Of a stretch of 52,248 nt of DNA, positions 5,008 to 30,958 are shown piece by piece. The translations under genes and the position numbers were made by a program. Every line of letters starts with the position of its first letter. The first letter of the stretch is position 1. The notes beneath the pieces were generated by a model, which was given only the letters and a program-made list of their open reading frames with translations, did no database searches and was not told the origin of the DNA. The DNA is from a virus (Duplodnaviria; Caudoviricetes): positions 1 through 52,248 of the IMG/VR virus record IMGVR_UViG_3300009420_001906, one strand, 5' to 3'.

Positions 5008-5024
5008 TTAGGTTCATAATATAT

Positions 5025-5053
5025 ATTATAGTCTCAAACGGACCATAATGCAA
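5025..5053 (-). promoter_or_regulatory. Sigma70-type promoter for gp43
   Basis: TTGCAT-17bp-TATAAT. Confidence 0.75.
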
Positions 5054-5061
5054 GCTATTTT

Positions 5062-5400
5062 TTAGTTATGTGTTACTTCGCCAGTAGATAATACAATAAG
5101 GTCTATTCTAGAGTTGATGTATGCAGGTATCCCAGCATCCATTGATCCATCGGAATGAGCTGTGACAGCAGTTACAAGTGCAGGCCAGTCAGCAGCATCT
5201 ACAGCTGCAATTTCATCAGCATTAAGTGTACTGACGTTGTCTAGCACAATAATAGCATGTTGAATAATAGAAGGAACTGCATTAAAATCAGCTATCTTAG
5301 CCGTCGTCTGATTAATAGCAGCTGTTACATCGCTATCAAGGACAGTCGCAGCAGTCCAGATTTGTATCTCTATTTTTAAAATATCGCTTTGAACAGCCAT
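5062..5400 (-). CDS. Hypothetical Ala-rich protein
   Basis: 112 aa ORF with GGAG RBS and late-type CTAAATA at 5428-5434. Confidence 0.7.
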   Translation of the reverse strand: MAVQSDILKIEIQIWTAATVLDSDVTAAINQTTAKIADFNAVPSIIQHAIIVLDNVSTLNADEIAAVDAADWPALVTAVTAHSDGSMDAGIPAYINSRIDLIVLSTGEVTHN

Positions 5401-5438
5401 AATTTACTCCAAGTTGTTTATGATATATATTTAGCTTA

Positions 5439-5573
5439 TTAGGCACTTAACATTATAATTACTACCGGCAGGAAGGGGATTAAGAGACCGGCTAAAAACA
5501 TTAAAGTTTCTACCATGGCATCTGTATCACACTCATCTACACGTGCAGTGATCGCTTTGATCATCGCGGACAT
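5439..5573 (-). CDS. Small membrane protein (44 aa, not in ORF track)
   Basis: MSAMIKAITARVDECDTDAMVETLMFLAGLLIPFLPVVIIMLSA; GGAG RBS 6 nt upstream; TATAAATA at 5628-5635. Confidence 0.65.
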   Translation of the reverse strand: MSAMIKAITARVDECDTDAMVETLMFLAGLLIPFLPVVIIMLSA

Positions 5574-7520: not shown

Positions 7521-8420
7521 TTATGAATAGCCTGCGCCGGGCTTTGCCACGGGGAGAGAGCTTAGCTCGTTCACTAGATATTTTGCGAATCTTTTATGTA
7601 CTGCCATAGTCGGATGATGAAATCCATGAACTTGGCCTCCATGTTGATGCATGTCTGTATCAGCAACTTCATACTCAGTCATTCGCTCATATGATTGTAA
7701 ACAGTAGTCCCAGAACTCCCATTCAGGTCCTAACTCAATATCATTATAAGCTTTGTAAGGTCTCTCAGTTTTTGGGAGATCTACTTTGAGATATTCTTTA
7801 CTAATGTGATGAATAAAATTAAATTTAAATTTATTAACGATAGCAAAGTCGATAATTGCATTAACTGATTTCCAGTATTCGGCTGTCTGACGATAGTCAC
7901 TTAAAAAGTTTAGCAATGGTTTCATATTACCTAATAGATGATCTGTAAGAGGTGTTGCTCTCTGGCCGTCACTGATAGACATTCGATGATGATATGTCAT
8001 ATCAAATTTACCAGTCTTCTTACTAAGGGAGTATGTTCTTGTTGGACGAGTTAGTCCTACGAATAGATGATCAGTCTTCGGATCTAAGGCGCCGCTCATA
8101 TGATCTTGTTGTATTTTAAGTAAAGCATAATCAAGAGGCATTGCTATGATGCACCGCTTTACACACTCACGCTTTCTTAGCTTAGACATAACGTTAGGAT
8201 AAGCTGTTTGCACATCTCTATGTATAAACTCCCATAGAGTTGTCTTACATGCCTCAGCTAAAACTTTATGGTGACTGCGCATAGCTAATTCTAAGCCATG
8301 CTCAGCTTTATGTGCTTTCTTTTGGATATCTAGTTCAGCAGGATCTACATCTAGAATTAGGTGGTCTTCAATTTCGATTCCCATCATATGGCTACAGCCA
8401 TAAAACACGTCTCTTTTCAT
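7521..8420 (-). CDS. SGNH/GDSL hydrolase-like protein
   Basis: N-terminal YGCSHMMG and C-terminal HHP...HKRFA resemble SGNH blocks I and V. Confidence 0.55.
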   Translation of the reverse strand: MKRDVFYGCSHMMGIEIEDHLILDVDPAELDIQKKAHKAEHGLELAMRSHHKVLAEACKTTLWEFIHRDVQTAYPNVMSKLRKRECVKRCIIAMPLDYALLKIQQDHMSGALDPKTDHLFVGLTRPTRTYSLSKKTGKFDMTYHHRMSISDGQRATPLTDHLLGNMKPLLNFLSDYRQTAEYWKSVNAIIDFAIVNKFKFNFIHHISKEYLKVDLPKTERPYKAYNDIELGPEWEFWDYCLQSYERMTEYEVADTDMHQHGGQVHGFHHPTMAVHKRFAKYLVNELSSLPVAKPGAGYS

Positions 8421-11703: not shown

Positions 11704-12735
11704 TTATTTCTTTTTCTTTTTTTGCTTAGAATGATCAGGCCCAGTAGCAACTGATTTCTTTTTCAGTTTACTTTCATCAGCGGTTGCACTAGCACCAATC
11801 GCTGCAAGGTCTGCTAATGAGCCGCCGAATACATAAGTACCAACATGCTGCAATTGCATCCAAGGACATAACCAGACTTGTAGCCCAATTTTCCTTGCCC
11901 ATTGACAGAACATATAATCTTCTGACAAATATCTATTAGAGTATTCTGACTCACCATCACCGCTTCCGGTTTTATCAGTCACGAATTCAATAATCTGTTC
12001 TTTAGTAGGTTCAGGGTTAGCTTTATAAAACTGCTCCATCTCATTACCCATATTGTTATACTTGTCATCAATAAGAGCATCAAAGTACGCCATAATTTCT
12101 CTTGAGCCATCAAATTCAGCTGTACGAACATGATCTGGCTTATACATCAATTGAGGATAAGCATCTCTATATTTCTCTAGAGTCTCTCTTCTTATCATCA
12201 TAAAGCCTGTACCACCTTCCATAACCTCTGCAGGCTCTTGAAGACTAATTTGGTTACCTGATTTAGGTACTGGATTAAATACATAATCACCAACAAACTT
12301 ACTCAGTACTTCAGCATCTTCATCTGCTACACCTTGATCTACGGCTTGCTTAACCTTCTCCCATGAAATACATTTCTTAGGATATGGACCACATAAGATA
12401 TCAAACGGATTGCCGTCATTAACACCTGGGTGACCATCTGACATAGCTAGTAAAGCTAATACATCATTAGCATCAAAGCCAATATCACTATCGATAAACA
12501 TTAAATGACTGCAATCAGATCTCATGAACTCATCTGTACAATAGTTACGTGCTCGAGTCACAAGAGACTCATTAAAGAGATAGTAAAATTTTAGCTCAAT
12601 GTTATGCGCTCTGAACAGCGCTGATAAATCGTTAGTTGACTTGCAAAACATGCCTGCGCATTGTCCACCATACATCGGAGCTGCAATAAACAGTTTCTTC
12701 TTTTGTAAGTCACTTATTTCAACTTTTAATTCCAT
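11704..12735 (-). CDS. GT-A fold glycosyltransferase-like protein
   Basis: PMYGG, ESLVTRARN, MFIDSDIGF (DxD), GTGFMMI, YLSEDYMFC. Confidence 0.75.
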   Translation of the reverse strand: MELKVEISDLQKKKLFIAAPMYGGQCAGMFCKSTNDLSALFRAHNIELKFYYLFNESLVTRARNYCTDEFMRSDCSHLMFIDSDIGFDANDVLALLAMSDGHPGVNDGNPFDILCGPYPKKCISWEKVKQAVDQGVADEDAEVLSKFVGDYVFNPVPKSGNQISLQEPAEVMEGGTGFMMIRRETLEKYRDAYPQLMYKPDHVRTAEFDGSREIMAYFDALIDDKYNNMGNEMEQFYKANPEPTKEQIIEFVTDKTGSGDGESEYSNRYLSEDYMFCQWARKIGLQVWLCPWMQLQHVGTYVFGGSLADLAAIGASATADESKLKKKSVATGPDHSKQKKKKK

Positions 12736-13178
12736 TACGCCTCAACCTTCTGCATTACCAGTTCACCAATATCTTGTCCAGGTTCAATGAATGCTTCTCC
12801 GCCATCTACTCTTAGTACACCTTCAATTAGTCCTTTATAACCAGCGCCAAATAGTGCACTTGATACACTCAATCCAGCTGCTACTAATTTTGAACTTGGT
12901 ACTAACCATGCAACGTGTCCTTTTGGTACTGTAAGATAGGCATCACTTGTAAAGGCATAAGTGCCTGGAAACATATGAGCTATTTCTCTGTTCTTTTCTG
13001 GGTCACCTGGATCAATCATCAACTGAATTTCATAAGTTTCTCTTTCGAGATTTGTTTCATCAGTTATGACAAAGGGATTGCCTTGATAGCCTCTAATTGA
13101 GGCCGCGTTTACTGGCACACTATATCCAGTTCCATCAGTATCTATTCCACTGACATATTGTTTAGGGTTCACTAACAT
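12735..13178 (-). CDS. Degenerate dUTPase-fold protein
   Basis: Collinear with the neighbouring dUTPase-like ORF (PSSKL..G, SALFGAGYKG, DIGEL) but catalytic residues are substituted. Confidence 0.6.
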   Translation of the reverse strand: MLVNPKQYVSGIDTDGTGYSVPVNAASIRGYQGNPFVITDETNLERETYEIQLMIDPGDPEKNREIAHMFPGTYAFTSDAYLTVPKGHVAWLVPSSKLVAAGLSVSSALFGAGYKGLIEGVLRVDGGEAFIEPGQDIGELVMQKVEA

Positions 13179-13181
13179 TTC

Positions 13182-13682
13182 TTACTCCTGTGCTTGATAT
13201 TTTTTATCATGGTCTTTGTTAAGGCCATAATCCCCATCATAGAGATGTAGACTTTCGGCTTTGAATAATAAGAATTGACCGATTCTTGTATTCACTTTCA
13301 CTTTAAATGGTCCTGACGTTACGTGCAACGCACCTGCCATCACTCCATTATACCCTGAGTCATAAAGACCTGAGGTTATATATACACCGTTACGGTTTAA
13401 AGTTGATCTTGTAATAACAAAACCAGCTTCTCCCTCGCCTACAGTAATAATATTCGACATTAATACTTCGTATGTTCCTACATCAAGTTCGAAGTACCCA
13501 TCCTTATTAGGTTGAATTTCAATAGAGCCTCTATGGACCTTCTGATCTTCATCTAATATGAACGGTAGATTTTTAATCATATAAACTTTGTCAAGACGTA
13601 AGTCAACCGCGTTAGGTTGAATGTCTTGTTTTTGTACGTTTGTTAATTGTGATAAGGATTTATCACTGGAGATATGTATCAT
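13182..13682 (-). CDS. Trimeric dUTPase/dCTP deaminase family protein
   Basis: QPNAVDLR, TRSTLNRNG, SGLYDSGYNG, RIGQF, YDGDYG. Confidence 0.85.
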   Translation of the reverse strand: MIHISSDKSLSQLTNVQKQDIQPNAVDLRLDKVYMIKNLPFILDEDQKVHRGSIEIQPNKDGYFELDVGTYEVLMSNIITVGEGEAGFVITRSTLNRNGVYITSGLYDSGYNGVMAGALHVTSGPFKVKVNTRIGQFLLFKAESLHLYDGDYGLNKDHDKKYQAQE

Positions 13683-14316: not shown

Positions 14317-15078
14317 TTATACTATTTCCGCTTGTGACTGCGCTGCGCTGAACGCATTATTAAGATAAGGTATCGGGTCAGTGACACCTGCTTTTATAAA
14401 GTTCATCATCCTCTCAGAACAAGTTGGGCATTTACCACAACTGACTCCATCGACAGGATCATAACATGAAATAGTATTAATTAATAGGTGCTCAGATTCC
14501 ATATCTAGTGCTAGAAGAATCTCATCCTTCTTAGATAGCTGACTAAACGGAGCCTCTATTTGAACCTTGAAGGTTCTATTTTGAGATGCTACAGCATTGA
14601 GACTGTCAACAAATTGCTGACTTGTATCCCAATAACCATACTCATCATGGACTTGAAGCCCAGTGAACACGTGACTAGCTCTTCTTACTTCTGCTAGACT
14701 CATAGTTAATGATAACATAATTAGGTTTCTAAATGGAACATATGTAGGTGGTTGAGGATCACCCAGCACGTCTTGGATGGTAGGCATCGCTACCTCCGTA
14801 CCACTAATGTTAGCTGATATAGGAGAAGCGATATCTCCAAGTATGCTTAAGTTAAGTATCTTATGTTTAATTCCTAACTTATTACAAAGTTCAAAAGCTT
14901 TCTCAAGTTCTACTCTTTGCTTCTGACCATAGTCATAGCTTACAGCAGACACTCTCTCCGCACCGTACTTCTTTACCAGTAGCATTGTCATTACTGATGA
15001 GTCAAGCCCACCTGATAACACAGCTAATACGTTCTGACTTGTGTCAGGTAAATTATCTAATGCTTGATTAAGATTCAT
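14317..15078 (-). CDS. queC: 7-cyano-7-deazaguanine synthase QueC
   Basis: SGGLDS PP-loop, YDYGQ, TYVPFRN, SCY...CGKCPTC zinc motif. Confidence 0.95.
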   Translation of the reverse strand: MNLNQALDNLPDTSQNVLAVLSGGLDSSVMTMLLVKKYGAERVSAVSYDYGQKQRVELEKAFELCNKLGIKHKILNLSILGDIASPISANISGTEVAMPTIQDVLGDPQPPTYVPFRNLIMLSLTMSLAEVRRASHVFTGLQVHDEYGYWDTSQQFVDSLNAVASQNRTFKVQIEAPFSQLSKKDEILLALDMESEHLLINTISCYDPVDGVSCGKCPTCSERMMNFIKAGVTDPIPYLNNAFSAAQSQAEIV

Positions 15079-15292: not shown

Positions 15293-16224
15293 TATTGCCT
15301 CGCGGTTTTTCTGTGCGGTACGTCTGTATCAACTAAATCCATAGTTATACCGTCTATTAGTTCTTGACTAGTAGCTCTGATAGGATTAATATCAATGCCA
15401 CCTCTTCTTGTATATAGACAAGCTACTAATACTTCAGTATCATCGTCTAATATATCTACTAATCGTTTGTATATACACTCACATATTTCTTCATGAAAGT
15501 GATTCTCTTTTCTCATGCTTATAATATATCTCATAAGTGATTCAGGAGTTACACAATCCATACCTCTAATATGAATATATACATCGCCCCAATCGGGCTG
15601 GTTAGTAATTCTACAATTAGATCTTAGAGCGCTACTCGTGACTTGGAAAGGCATAAAGCCTAACTGAGGAGCATGTTCCAGAATATCTGGATCTTCTTCA
15701 TAGTTACTAAACTTTATATCTTCAATATCGACAAGTGATTCTAGTCTAACAAAATGACCTCTGATTGGAGCTCCAGGTAGTTCATTCTCTTCATCGTAAT
15801 GGAATGTAACGTCTACTTCTGTCTCTAAACAACTCTCAAGGTCGCCTTTAATTCTTTTTTCTAATGCTCTTATACCTGAGGTTAAAGTCTTACCTAATGT
15901 ATCCATATTAAATGAATTCATATACAACTTAAGACTCTTCGACTCAACTATGCATTCACTGTCAGCTGGATAAGCTAATTTAATAACACCACTAACAGGG
16001 AAGCCATTATTTAATAAGAAAGATACTTCATAGCAATTCCATACATCGAAACCAACAAACGGAAGCCTGTTTTCATCTATCTCATATTCTGTTCTATTAA
16101 GTATTCTTGGAACTGGTACAAGCAGGTCAGTCTGGATCTTAGTAGGAGTCACATATGGTTTAACAATGCTCCCGTCACCAGCCTTACCTAAGTGTTTGCT
16201 AACAATTTTATCTAATTCTTTCAT
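15292..16224 (-). CDS. queF: NADPH-dependent preQ0 reductase QueF (bimodular type)
   Basis: DVWNCYEVSFL, IVESKSLKLYMNS QueF motif, RSNCRITNQPDWG, FHEEICE, TRRGGIDINP. Confidence 0.95.
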   Translation of the reverse strand: MKELDKIVSKHLGKAGDGSIVKPYVTPTKIQTDLLVPVPRILNRTEYEIDENRLPFVGFDVWNCYEVSFLLNNGFPVSGVIKLAYPADSECIVESKSLKLYMNSFNMDTLGKTLTSGIRALEKRIKGDLESCLETEVDVTFHYDEENELPGAPIRGHFVRLESLVDIEDIKFSNYEEDPDILEHAPQLGFMPFQVTSSALRSNCRITNQPDWGDVYIHIRGMDCVTPESLMRYIISMRKENHFHEEICECIYKRLVDILDDDTEVLVACLYTRRGGIDINPIRATSQELIDGITMDLVDTDVPHRKTARQ

Positions 16225-16751
16225 CTACCTACAACCTTCAGTACTTGAGAGACTCTTTCTCTAACTGACCCTGAAACTGTAATATGTTCTCTAGGCAGCT
16301 CTTTAATAAAGCCTTCAAAGATATCGTTAATGTCATCTCTAAATTGTGGATCAATTGACCTAACGCCATCATCAATGATAGGAAACTCTGGACGTATATA
16401 AAAGATATAATCATAACTGTTAATTAGTTTCTCATATATAGAATAAACCTTTTCCAAAGTTGCTTGAGTTACTTTATTATGCTGATGCATCCATGTAGTA
16501 TATACTAGTCCATCTAATGCAGTACGATCAGTTAACATATCATCATACATGAATACGTTTGAGATATGCTTCTGCATAATTAATATTTGAGTTAAGTCAG
16601 ATCCCTGTTCATTGATATCAAATCCCATTTCTCTAATCTCTCTCGTCACTTCATCACACACTGTATATCCATCAAACCTTGGCTCGGATCTAAGTGCGTT
16701 TAACAAAGTCGTCTTCCCGACTGATTGCGCTCCTGTAATTCCTATTTTCAT
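16221..16751 (-). CDS. P-loop nucleotide kinase-like protein (NadR/AAA_28-like)
   Basis: GAQSVGKTT, TDRTALD, YDYIFY..P, DDGVR. Confidence 0.8.
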   Translation of the reverse strand: MKIGITGAQSVGKTTLLNALRSEPRFDGYTVCDEVTREIREMGFDINEQGSDLTQILIMQKHISNVFMYDDMLTDRTALDGLVYTTWMHQHNKVTQATLEKVYSIYEKLINSYDYIFYIRPEFPIIDDGVRSIDPQFRDDINDIFEGFIKELPREHITVSGSVRERVSQVLKVVGR

Positions 16752-20393: not shown

Positions 20394-20910
20394 TTTTATA
20401 CCATGTTACGAGTACTAGTCTAGTACCGCTCTCCACTTTACTAACTGAATGTAATACACTCGGTCCATATTTTATTGTCTCACCGACTGCTTGATTAACT
20501 ACTATAGGGATAATACTATCTCCTGCTTTATAATCACCTTCGGTATATCGGTTAGTTACTTCTGGAGTTACTTCTATATCTTTTTTATAGTGAGGCTCCA
20601 TTACAATTATTTCGCCGCCTTGCAGGTTTTCTGTCTCGAGTAATGTTATTGATGTGCCAGTGATTACATCATCGTTGTCACTATGCATTCGAGTAAAAGA
20701 ATCCTTCTCCATCATTAAGAAATAAGCTGCGTATAGACTCATGCCTTCTTCTCTTAAGATGTCAGGCACATCATCAAGTGAAATATCCTTCTTAATCATA
20801 TAGTGAAGATTATAGAATCTCTTTATACGTTCTTCCGGAAGCGAATGATAGAGCTCTATCAGAGCTTCTCTATCAGGAATGCTTATAAGTCTATCTCTAC
20901 TAAACACCAA
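20374..20910 (-). CDS. 2OG-Fe(II) oxygenase
   Basis: MHSD, GGE, HSVSKVESGTRLVLVTW. Confidence 0.8.
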   Translation of the reverse strand: MVFSRDRLISIPDREALIELYHSLPEERIKRFYNLHYMIKKDISLDDVPDILREEGMSLYAAYFLMMEKDSFTRMHSDNDDVITGTSITLLETENLQGGEIIVMEPHYKKDIEVTPEVTNRYTEGDYKAGDSIIPIVVNQAVGETIKYGPSVLHSVSKVESGTRLVLVTWYKNEENKI

Positions 20911-21814
20911 TTACATTGCCCCATATATAAGCATGCACTCGTGCACTAACATTAAAGCCTCTTTTGAAAGCTTCTGTTGCGACGTCTGCTGCTACAAGTT
21001 CTTGACCTTCTACGGTTGCGCCTACTGGCATAATCCATACAGGCCAATTAACACCTGCATATCTAAACTGCTCAATTGTATCTTCTAATTCATCCCAGCA
21101 CTCTTTAGTTCCATTAACAACGAACTTAAGCTGCCCTGAGTGAGCAAATTCTTGATATGAATTAACAATATCAGGTCTGATTGCTCTCTTAGATTCTTCT
21201 CCTGATACAGTATACAATTTAGGACTGCATGATATAAATAACTCGCTGCCCCAAACGTCTCTATACTCTTGCCAGAAGTTTATATAATCGCTTGTTTCGA
21301 TTTCTTTAGTTCCATTAGTTTCATATGTAACACTTCTTGGATAATCTCTTTGATCAATCCAATACTTCATCATATCCATTGAACACTGCTGAGCAGTCTT
21401 CATCATCGGCTCCCCGCCTGTGAAACACATATGCCTATTAAGCCACATACCTGCATTCCATTTATTTTTAAATGACTCACGAACTTTATCTGCTAAAGTT
21501 TCTGCATCATCCATCATTTGAAGTTTTTTGAATTTCTTAGCCCATGAATATGAACTATCACATCCCTTATCCCATACAGGAAGGTCTGTCATTTTTTGAT
21601 ACTTAAGCTCTCCGTCATCGTTGAGTTCAGTTAAGTCGATTTTTTGATAAGGTAAGTCCCATGTCTCAGGTTTAGTAGGATGATCCTGACCAAAGCCGTC
21701 GCATTGAAGATTACATAAGAAGAATCTCAACCAAGCTGTGGGTACACCTGTGTACTGTCCTTCACCTTGAATCGAGTCGAAGATCTCTGAATAGAGATAC
21801 TTTTTATTTGCCAT
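20900..21814 (-). CDS. queE: 7-carboxy-7-deazaguanine synthase QueE (radical SAM)
   Basis: SEIFDSIQGEG..TG.P, CNLQC...CDS, FTGGEPM, ETNGT, SPKL, RVH.YIWG. Confidence 0.93.
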   Translation of the reverse strand: MANKKYLYSEIFDSIQGEGQYTGVPTAWLRFFLCNLQCDGFGQDHPTKPETWDLPYQKIDLTELNDDGELKYQKMTDLPVWDKGCDSSYSWAKKFKKLQMMDDAETLADKVRESFKNKWNAGMWLNRHMCFTGGEPMMKTAQQCSMDMMKYWIDQRDYPRSVTYETNGTKEIETSDYINFWQEYRDVWGSELFISCSPKLYTVSGEESKRAIRPDIVNSYQEFAHSGQLKFVVNGTKECWDELEDTIEQFRYAGVNWPVWIMPVGATVEGQELVAADVATEAFKRGFNVSARVHAYIWGNVIGV

Positions 21815-21872
21815 TTTAGCTCCTAGTTTTGTTTTATTCGCTGTGGAAGGGCACAGCTACAATAATATTTAG
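21815..21872 (-). promoter_or_regulatory. Candidate structured leader (preQ1-I-like pseudoknot) of queE
   Basis: GCUGUG-CCCUUC-CACAGC stem-loop, then GAAUAAAACAAAACUAGGAG; CTAAATA at 21866-21872. Confidence 0.4.
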
Positions 21873-22414
21873 CTGCCTTGCTTAGCCTTAGCGATCTTAA
21901 TCGCATGGTTCTTAACCAGCCGCGTCACCTTCTTCCATTTTCTCTGAAATCTGTCTCTATGAATAGTATTTGCTCTTGTGAAGTATTCTATTCCATCTAG
22001 ATGATCTAACTCATGTTGGAATACCCTTGAGGCCATTCCGTCAAATTTCTTTGTGCATACATTGCCGTATGGATCTTGAAATCTAACTCTTGTAAATCTT
22101 GGACGTCTGATTTTAATAGTAACTCCAGGATAGGATAAGCATCCTTCGTCCATTAGAATTAATTCTTCACCAGTATACGTTATTTTCGGATTAAAGGCAA
22201 CTATCATAGGCTCTGAATACATAACAAATGCTCTTGCTCTGATGCCTAATTGATTAGCTGCTAGTCCAGCGCCTGCCTCATTCTTAATAGTGTCGATTAG
22301 AGTGTGTGCTAACTTAACTGCATCATTCTCCGGGTCGTTAAAGTCATAGTCAGGTACTACTGACCTGAGCATATCATTCCTATCGCCGAATGGTATTATA
22401 ATTTTTTGACTCAT
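21869..22414 (-). CDS. def: Peptide deformylase
   Basis: GAGLAANQLG, EGCLS, QHELDHLDG. Confidence 0.95.
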   Translation of the reverse strand: MSQKIIIPFGDRNDMLRSVVPDYDFNDPENDAVKLAHTLIDTIKNEAGAGLAANQLGIRARAFVMYSEPMIVAFNPKITYTGEELILMDEGCLSYPGVTIKIRRPRFTRVRFQDPYGNVCTKKFDGMASRVFQHELDHLDGIEYFTRANTIHRDRFQRKWKKVTRLVKNHAIKIAKAKQGS

Positions 22415-29460: not shown

Positions 29461-29486
29461 ACTATATTCTCACGGCTTTATACTAT

Positions 29487-29515
29487 ATTATAACGGCTTT
29501 CACCGTCGAAGTCAA
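29487..29515 (-). promoter_or_regulatory. Sigma70-type promoter for uvsY
   Basis: TTGACT-17bp-TATAAT. Confidence 0.8.
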
Positions 29516-29516
29516 C

Positions 29517-30833: not shown

Positions 30834-30844
30834 ATAATCTCCTG

Positions 30845-30914
30845 ATAGGTTAACCTTAAAAAATGGGACTAAGCTGCCTCTATGGCGTTGAACTTAGTCC
30901 CAAGGTTGCTATCT
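30845..30914 (-). promoter_or_regulatory. Long leader hairpin with U-tract upstream of iscU
   Basis: UGGGACUAAG/CUUAGUCCCA stem then UUUUUU; outer pairings AACCUU/AAGGUU and GAUAG/CUAUC. Confidence 0.6.
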
Positions 30915-30921
30915 ACAATAT

Positions 30922-30950
30922 ATTATAGTCGATCTCTCGACTTATTGCAA
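30922..30950 (-). promoter_or_regulatory. Sigma70-type promoter for iscU-iscA
   Basis: TTGCAA-17bp-TATAAT. Confidence 0.78.
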
Positions 30951-30958
30951 CTACTTTA

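Follow-up and report, generated by a model that had tools for sequence, protein, structure and literature searches.

Riboswitches of the preQ1-I class fold into an H-type pseudoknot that has a conserved G-C pair at the top of stem P1 and, as the last base ahead of the P1 3′ strand, a specificity cytosine. Uridines of loop L1 together with an adenine of loop L3 read the edge of the ligand, the A-rich L3 lies in the minor groove of P1, and bases from the Shine-Dalgarno (SD) sequence take part in stem P2 (PMC7641330, PMC8752633, PMC10622847 and PMC11625349 for both statements; these papers, like the others cited by accession below, are drawn on in part). In solved preQ1-I structures the L1 uridines are U6 and U7 (PMC10622847, PMC8752633). 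Here we describe an element directly upstream of a queE-like gene on a 52,248-nucleotide (nt) stretch of DNA (positions 1 to 52,248 of IMG/VR record IMGVR_UViG_3300009420_001906; this whole stretch is called the window), which a preliminary description had put forward as a preQ1-type riboswitch variant. We consider it probable that the element is a divergent, very small preQ1-I-like translational OFF switch of phage 7-deazaguanine DNA-modification operons.

Three types of preQ1-I riboswitch, types 1-3, were reportedly defined by McCown et al. in 2014. Type I has UC ahead of the P1 3′ strand, a tail that contains CUA and an L1 that contains UU (PMC8752633). It binds two stacked ligands, the second of which is read by the tail cytosine, as exemplified by Carnobacterium antarcticum (PMC8752633, PMC11625349). 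In type III a short pyrimidine-rich loop provides the U-C-C that pairs with the A-G-G of the SD, and a variable linker precedes conserved adenines (PMC10622847).

The RNA quoted in the preliminary description is present letter for letter, hairpin included, but on the minus strand of the window, which also carries all of its genes. Here a 6-base-pair (bp) hairpin with the loop CCCUUC, an A-rich tail and AACUAGGAG lie 5′ of the queE start codon, and the spacer between the deformylase gene and queE measures 54 nt. The sequence AACTAGGAG has a single exact occurrence in the window. The queE gene had been taken for the first pathway gene; it is the first gene of the operon, but the first enzymatic step belongs to FolE. 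In the three closest IMG/VR relatives of the QueE protein (74-76% identical) the deformylase–queE junction is present with an identical loop and tail, the stem is altered compensatorily and the linker is 3 to 4 nt shorter. Judged from these alignments, the conservation of the leader is greater than the divergence of the coding sequences predicts.

To collect further members, IMG/VR was scanned for the 12-mer GUGCCCUUCCAC followed by AGGAG within 8-35 nt, which matched at least 120 loci. A full leader down to the start codon was found in 78 among the 120 matches listed, so that at least 78 IMG/VR loci carry the element. The other 42 listed were taken as chance matches because they lack the CTAGGAG tail and a start codon, are mostly stemless and in many cases are GC-rich. 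The 78 full leaders among the matches listed gave 49 unique ones, including that of the window, which were aligned (alignment A1), with the three inner P1 pairs fixed by the search pattern, and a covariance model (R1) was built from A1. A further alignment (A7) comprises 62 sequences, and 52 distinct sequences were used for variant counts. In 50 of the 52 the start codon lies 5-8 nt past the SD, and in the shortest members the distance between the first base of P1 and the last base of P2, both included, is about 24 nt. Conservation among related phage leaders, named beforehand as a point on which the riboswitch proposal turns, is therefore observed.

Covariation supports the stem. In A1 the pair 9-22 is AU in 16, CG in 13, GC in 11, UA in 8 and GU in one of the sequences and is never unpaired (0/49); pair 8-23 is unpaired in 0/35 and pair 7-24 in 1/29. 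The covariation score of the outer P1 pairs is 0.325 compared with 0.072 in shuffles, none of 500 of which reaches it, and does not exceed 0.066 when the partners are slid. The inner pairs also change in concert in variants that were found by the model or by other patterns (GUG/CAC, CUG/CAG, CAG/CUG, CGG/CCG, GAG/CUC). The family stem is 4-9 bp long and topped by an invariant G-C pair, which is present in 62/62 sequences; this pair was enforced by the pattern in most of them and free only in the 16 found with R1, which is itself biased toward G-C. Thus, the strong covariation of P1 among phage queE leaders, a check that the preliminary description had suggested, is accompanied by the G-C top known from preQ1-I.

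The family loop has six nucleotides and reads NCCU(U/C)C, closed by G-C. Among the 52 distinct sequences, position 1 is occupied by C 42 times, by G five times, by A three times and by U twice; positions 2, 4 and 6 never vary, position 3 is C except for an A in the upstream copies of tandem arrangements, and position 5 is U or C. At this last position, the base before the loop-end cytosine, U prevails, and C occurs in locus L269 and in some of the tandem upstream copies. The cytosine at position 6, which corresponds to the specificity cytosine of preQ1-I, is found in 62/62 sequences, a count that was partly enforced by the pattern and not strictly so in the 16 model-found sequences. The tail is equally constant. 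AACU precedes AGGAG in all 49 leaders of A1, although the scan pattern did not impose it, and AA precedes CUAGG in 49/49, with CA in one variant found later (L444), in line with an A-rich L3. A scan for the hairpin followed by AACUA and a base other than G returned 11 stretches, none of them a real variant.

Loop and tail can pair with each other, as expected for an H-type pseudoknot in which the loop binds an SD-containing tail. Loop positions 2-4 (CCU) pair with AGG at all three pairs in 62/62 sequences of A7, the middle pair being C-G in 56 and A-U in 6. The preliminary description had offered two registers for a loop–SD pseudoknot; CCU with AGG stands, with one double change in its favor, and CUUC with GGAG was rejected, as the 6 sequences with A-U among the 62 break three of its four pairs. 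A dedicated scan of loop position 3 and tail position 41 gave 26 stretches, of which 14 look like chance; the 12 real ones without exception have A in the loop together with U in the tail, and no covariation event was found beyond one tandem clade. The alignments support an H-type pseudoknot whose P2 would use the first three bases of the SD.

The tandem clade includes loci L191 (1262-1325), L348 (7680-7743, minus strand), L353, L373, L393, L410, L441 and L444. Its promoter-proximal copy sits where relatives have their single element and carries the loop CCAU(U/C)C and the tail AACUAUG. Although no SD is left in this tail, it retains AACUA and the last G. The copy overlaps P1 of the second, SD-bearing copy by 1-2 nt, so that the first pseudoknot would compete with the base of the second stem, and such competition could result in cooperative or two-step switching. 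In locus L362 two complete copies lie about 230 nt apart (7911-7943 and 7679-7719, both on the minus strand), one before an upstream gene and the other before queE.

The motif is associated with genes of preQ1 synthesis; a preQ1 riboswitch is expected beside genes of queuosine or preQ1 synthesis or transport. Among the matches listed, 75 of the 75 motif loci with enough downstream DNA encode QueE within about 1 kb (tblastn with the window proteins), and three further loci are too short for their downstream genes to be judged. QueE is usually followed by FolE, a DpdA3-like protein, a formyltransferase, QueF and QueC at 30-80% identity (tblastn). Which gene comes first after the motif varies by lineage: QueE of two subfamilies, QueD, a flavodoxin (Pfam), FolE, a protein of 56-59 amino acids (aa) without a Pfam match or a 251-aa dehydrogenase-like protein, one type of first gene being described as a small membrane protein. 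Where FolE is first, a variant motif lies between queE and folE. Whichever gene is first, the motif heads the operon.

In cellular genomes the exact pattern is absent but for one phage contig. Bacteria and archaea were covered by one genome for each of about 186,000 species, and in these the pattern turned up five times. Only one occurrence is real, on an AT-rich contig of 11.6 kb that carries the phage cluster and was binned into a metagenome-assembled genome. As this is the only real match among the cellular genomes, we regard the family in this form as phage-restricted. The motif is absent from those QueE relatives in the first protein scan whose identity is 53% or less (L005-L021). DNA BLAST of queE plus the deformylase gene against cultured phages gave no match, and BLAST of the 52-nt leader returned seven partial matches, all with E of 1 or more and none in a que context. 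In a second QueE subfamily (L146-L225) most close relatives have neither an SD-like sequence before queE nor the motif, which suggests that the hosts of this subfamily do not rely on SD pairing. Since these relatives mostly lack an SD-like sequence, a patchy spread of a motif that masks the SD can be understood.

Compared with the described types, the phage motif shares with type I the minimal H-type pseudoknot, UC before the P1 3′ strand, a tail CUA after a run of adenines, the G-C pair at the top of P1 and an SD within P2. Type I also controls translation (PMC8752633, PMC11625349), as we infer for the phage motif. Differences from type I are as follows: UU is missing from L1 and replaced by a single nucleotide of any identity; the loop has 6 nt instead of roughly 12, the latter as deduced from the residue numbering in PMC8752633; P2 consists of three Watson-Crick pairs (CCU:AGG), whereas that of type I is largely non-canonical; and the loop offers no adenine as a partner for the U of the tail. 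The preliminary description had correctly called the loop shorter than canonical and devoid of the usual loop consensus.

With type III, known from E. coli and Shigella upstream of yhhQ, the phage motif shares the short pyrimidine-rich loop, the variable linker followed by conserved adenines and the burial of most of the SD. The register and polarity of P2 are likewise those of U11-A28, C10-G29 and C9-G30 (PMC10622847). The signature of type III, UU before the P2 strand, AC before the P1 3′ strand and an AAGG tail without CU, was not found in the phage motif even though pyrimidine-rich loop and P2 register agree. Moreover, type III occurs almost only in Gammaproteobacteria and before a transporter gene, whereas the phage motif has UC and ACUAGG and stands before biosynthesis and DNA-modification operons. 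By its letters, the phage motif is a combination of type-I marks (UC, run of adenines, CUA) with the loop and P2 register of type III, having one L1 nucleotide without fixed identity and two L2 nucleotides.

The preliminary description had proposed a search with Infernal and the Rfam preQ1 models. With RF00522 the only match in the record of the window is the element itself (21817-21860, minus strand, full length, 10.5 bits, E 0.76). Among five other records with the motif, the sole match coincides with the motif in two (21.6 bits, E 0.0017; 16.3 bits, E 0.015) and three give none. The search thus placed sub-threshold matches exactly on the motif in three records but remained below the cut-off. 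In a control, it put one of 14 well-known genomes above the cut-off. All 45 model positions are aligned on the motif, and stem and tail (AAAACUA.G) match the consensus; in one of the three alignments the model leaves inner stem pairs unpaired in favor of a longer loop, though those pairs covary. Measured against the Rfam cut-off and the L1 uridines, the motif falls outside the described family.

Judged by fold, signature nucleotides and gene context, the phage motif would nevertheless work like a preQ1-I riboswitch. Much of the initial proposal of a preQ1-type variant leader holds, namely a conserved and covarying stem, a pseudoknot with the SD, 7-deazaguanine genes downstream and the preQ1-I hallmarks (G-C at the P1 top, loop-end C, A-rich linker, ACUA); the Rfam threshold and the L1 uridines do not bear it out. 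In the mechanism that we propose, a free 7-deazaguanine base from the operon would bind between P1 and P2, where it would be read by the loop cytosine beside P1 plus tail adenines and/or the tail cytosine. QueF and the formyltransferase are encoded in nearly all clusters, which makes preQ1 or formyl-preQ1 the obvious candidates; preQ1 is the most likely ligand, with preQ0 or formyl-preQ1 as possible ones. Binding would lock P2 and hide the AGG of the SD, such that translation of the first gene, here QueE, would fall, and overlapping downstream reading frames would pass this drop on to the later genes of the operon. In the window, AGCTAAATA is retained in the closest relatives although the upstream reading frame differs, and a promoter-like hexamer lies shortly before P1 in most members. 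The aptamer may therefore form the very beginning of a transcript of its own, or lie close to it; transcripts reading through from the deformylase gene are possible as well. That a ligand binds, which ligand this is and in which direction it acts is what we infer.

A wider claim is, in our judgement, evenly balanced between being right and being wrong. The family may constitute a new phage-specific sub-class of preQ1-I that is the smallest natural aptamer yet, does without L1 uridines, is sometimes arranged in tandem and senses how much of the modified base is free, the ligand perhaps being formyl-preQ1 or a stacked pair as in type I, to throttle synthesis of the base that replaces guanine in the phage DNA. 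It would then be the first widespread riboswitch of DNA hypermodification.

Several observations weigh against a preQ1-I-like switch. The motif lacks the uridines with which L1 touches the ligand in each of the three solved preQ1-I types, and a loop of 6 nt compares with about 9-12 nt in the known types, as deduced from the residue numbering in the papers. None of the six records reaches the RF00522 gathering score of 39 bits, neither the window nor any of 15 motif loci has an Rfam match at gathering, and an Rfam search of 301 nt gave nothing at E ≤ 10. Most invariance counts come from sequences found by patterns or by a model that enforce part of the motif. As the P2 double change is confined to one clade, the covariation of P2 is probably one evolutionary event. 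Similarly, all members belong to one syntenic gene-cluster family, so that the gene association is not repeatedly independent and amounts essentially to one evolutionary association. P1 length and linker length are not correlated (rho 0.16, p 0.26), and the expected pseudoknot signature was thus not found. In loci selected by QueE protein, R1 matched only 7/80 and 9/80. Flavobacterium phage immuto_2-6A, which has the gene set and largely its order and whose DpdA3 is 53% identical, holds no RNA motif (best R1 score 10.8 bits). Finally, the 81-nt fold of the leader has a z of 0.30, with 124 of 200 shuffles folding at least as well; it is its conservation and covariation in related phages, not its own fold, that lifts the hairpin above chance.

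A ligand-independent pseudoknot or a protein-bound translational operator that sets or times translation of the first gene is a doubtful alternative; loop and tail would then make up a rigid fold or a site for a protein of phage or host, and no small molecule would be sensed. Invariant loops are typical of protein-binding hairpins, and the L1 uridines needed for the known preQ1-I ligand contacts are missing. The loop moreover resembles an anti-SD, and simple SD masking would account for CCU:AGG. However, in the upstream copies of the tandem clade a double change preserves P2, and AACUA persists without an SD tail; the pseudoknot is therefore not kept merely to mask the ribosome site. One syntenic cluster family could carry its own regulator, for which the 81-aa protein encoded in some clusters might be considered; this protein was detected only in some loci, and no candidate regulator is common to all clusters. 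Processing could be hinted at by three short metatranscriptome contigs from three studies, which run from the deformylase 3′ end through the hairpin and have their low ends at 21828, 21826 and 21822. None bridges into queE, and all end within 6 nt at the leader CUAGG, at the SD. Since contigs cannot show RNA ends and DNA carry-over is possible, the clustering is a weak hint of an RNA end or of a structure-dependent artefact. Under this alternative, the match to the preQ1-I signature (UC, run of adenines, CUA, G-C top) and the repeated sub-threshold matches to RF00522 would be coincidence.

It is improbable that the element is a generic 5′ stabilizing hairpin combined with a strong ribosome-binding site. 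Consistent with a 5′-terminal hairpin, a promoter-like hexamer (TAAATA, TAAGTA, TATAAT, TATTAT or other TAnnnT) ends 3-14 nt 5′ of P1 in 42 of the 52 distinct sequences, a count without a chance control. Further spacers of the window contain similar motifs (nATAAATA or CTAAATA), and CTAAATA is not enriched in the window (14 found, 16.8 expected). The preliminary description had itself cautioned that other leaders carry 5′ hairpins. Other window spacers do hold hairpins, yet none resembles the queE element: R1 scores 59.3 bits at the queE leader and at most 10.4 bits elsewhere in the window, leaving one such element among the spacers. The 12-mer with up to two mismatches matches three times in the window against 1.5 expected, and exactly only at the queE site. 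In an unrelated group of phages of about 88 kb, AACUAGGAG serves as the ribosome-binding-site context of many genes. By contrast, ACTAGGAG occurs 20 times in 160 loci selected by QueE protein, and 16 of these 20 sites carry the hairpin with an NCCUYC loop. For a stabilizer the stem alone suffices, which leaves the invariant loop, the invariant AACUA and the compensated loop-tail pair unexplained.

An element acting in the DNA, be it an inverted-repeat operator, a promoter component or the deformylase gene's intrinsic terminator, would fit a stem that forms an inverted repeat beside a promoter-like motif but is very improbable, because G-U pairs sit on the sense strand only and the conserved centre of the repeat is asymmetric, which marks an RNA rather than a DNA operator, because loop-tail covariation is meaningless in duplex DNA, and because no T-run follows the stem and a consensus scan found neither a terminator nor a sigma-70 promoter at the hairpin.

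The preQ1-I-like switch that we favor lies at the head of a tightly packed deazaguanine cluster whose genes often overlap and which extends down to position 14317. The features of the leader and of the two genes that flank it are listed in Table 1.

Table 1 Positions in the window of the queE leader, its parts and the adjoining genes.
Feature	Position	Strand	Basis
Peptide deformylase gene, immediately upstream	21869..22414	(-)	Pfam PF01327, E 1.4e-33; list of open reading frames
Deformylase stop codon, within the promoter-like CTAAATA	21871-21869	(-)	List of open reading frames
CTAAATA, heptamer resembling a T4-type late promoter, ending 8 nt 5′ of P1	21866..21872	(-)	Putative function, by resemblance
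P1 5′ strand, GCUGUG	21852..21857	(-)	Covariation of outer pairs in 49 and 62 sequences
Loop, CCCUUC	21846..21851	(-)	Loop variants, P2 counts
Loop position 1, the one-nucleotide L1, any base in the family	21851	(-)	Loop variants
Loop positions 2-4, P2 5′ strand	21850-21848	(-)	P2 counts
Loop position 6, invariant C directly 5′ of the P1 3′ strand; candidate specificity base	21846	(-)	Analogy to the preQ1-I cytosine (PMC7641330, PMC8752633, PMC10622847, in part)
P1 3′ strand, CACAGC, with its first C as partner of the invariant G at the P1 top	21840..21845	(-)	Covariation
L3, 13-nt A-rich linker ending in AA; family range 2-13 nt, here at the maximum	21827..21839	(-)	Alignments
CUAGGAG	21826-21820	(-)	Sequence
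Invariant CU of the tail motif ACUA; retained in tandem copies with a non-SD tail	21825..21826	(-)	Alignments
SD, AGGAG; its first three bases (21824-21822) are the P2 3′ strand and pair with loop positions 4, 3 and 2	21820..21824	(-)	62/62 paired
AUG of the queE-like gene, five bases after the SD	21814-21812	(-)	Sequence
queE-like radical SAM gene, 304 aa, first of the tightly packed cluster	20900..21814	(-)	PHROG 2076, E 7.6e-54; weak NCBIfam QueE matches

The queE-like protein has no Pfam match. Its gene is followed, in this order, by genes for a 2OG-oxygenase-like protein, a PRTase (phosphoribosyltransferase), a DUF3307 protein, QueD, FolE, an 81-aa protein, a DpdA3-like transglycosylase (a 266-aa protein), a formyltransferase, an AAA_28 kinase-like protein, QueF, a 74-aa protein and QueC. 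The cluster therefore encodes the whole path to preQ1 (FolE, QueD, QueE, QueC, QueF) along with a DpdN-like formyltransferase and a DpdA3-like transglycosylase, the latter being the protein with 53% identity to its immuto_2-6A counterpart. In the DNA of immuto_2-6A, formyl-dPreQ1 replaces G, and the formyltransferase of that phage was named DpdN (PMC10516641). Within or beside the cluster of the window there are also two dCTP-deaminase/dUTPase-like genes and the AAA_28 (thymidylate-kinase-like) gene (12735-13682 and 16221-16751). This kinase-like gene adjoins the formyltransferase gene in most related clusters. The window itself, a fragment 52 kb long, comes from a T4-like marine phage that is uncultured; gp46/gp47-like genes lie upstream, and near-identical DNA is present in marine and seawater metagenomes.

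Further promoter-like and leader sequences were observed in the window. Sigma-70-like promoters (TTGACT, TTGCAT or TTGCAA, about 17 nt, TATAAT) are located at 2191-2237, 5008-5061, 29461-29516 and 30834-30958 on the minus strand, each with a short inverted repeat between the two hexamers. The leader of gene 5400-5062 (5398-5440, minus strand) contains AAGCUAAAUA, an A-rich stretch and AACUUGGAG; it resembles the promoter-like motif and the tail of the queE leader and has no hairpin.

A scan for variants of L1 yielded 107 stretches, many of which were set aside as an unrelated intergenic module of phages of about 88 kb or as chance matches. The module is found in L331, L340, L344, L368, L377 and about 30 other loci, on contigs of about 80-90 kb and in several copies per genome. 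It is built of a G-rich hairpin with CCUUCC in its 3′ strand, a spacer of about 19 nt, AACUAGGAG and ATG, stands before many different genes and looks like a promoter- or terminator-plus-ribosome-binding-site cassette of another phage group.

In phage genomes, riboswitches are described as rare (McCown et al. 2017, PMC5473149; PMC9004378), and a survey of pelagimyophages that used a riboswitch scanner found none (PMC7029224). The presence of a preQ1 riboswitch on the que operon of Streptococcus phage Dp-1 was not confirmed, as the first 5 kb gave no Rfam match at gathering. In the main texts covered by full-text searches no preQ1-type RNA on phage deazaguanine clusters was found, and the word riboswitch does not occur in the key paper on these clusters (PMC10516641). 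Curated Rfam thresholds miss this sizeable family, which becomes visible only through comparative analysis of viral metagenomes.

If the proposed reading is correct, the phage motif would be a natural aptamer that undercuts the known preQ1-I types in size, which would suit it to structural studies and to use as a compact synthetic switch. With six nucleotides in its loop and no L1 uridines, it would show to what extent a preQ1-I pocket tolerates reduction. If ligand binding is true, the element would represent an unusual, phage-specific metabolite sensor, and phages would meter an anti-restriction DNA-modification pathway by means of an RNA.

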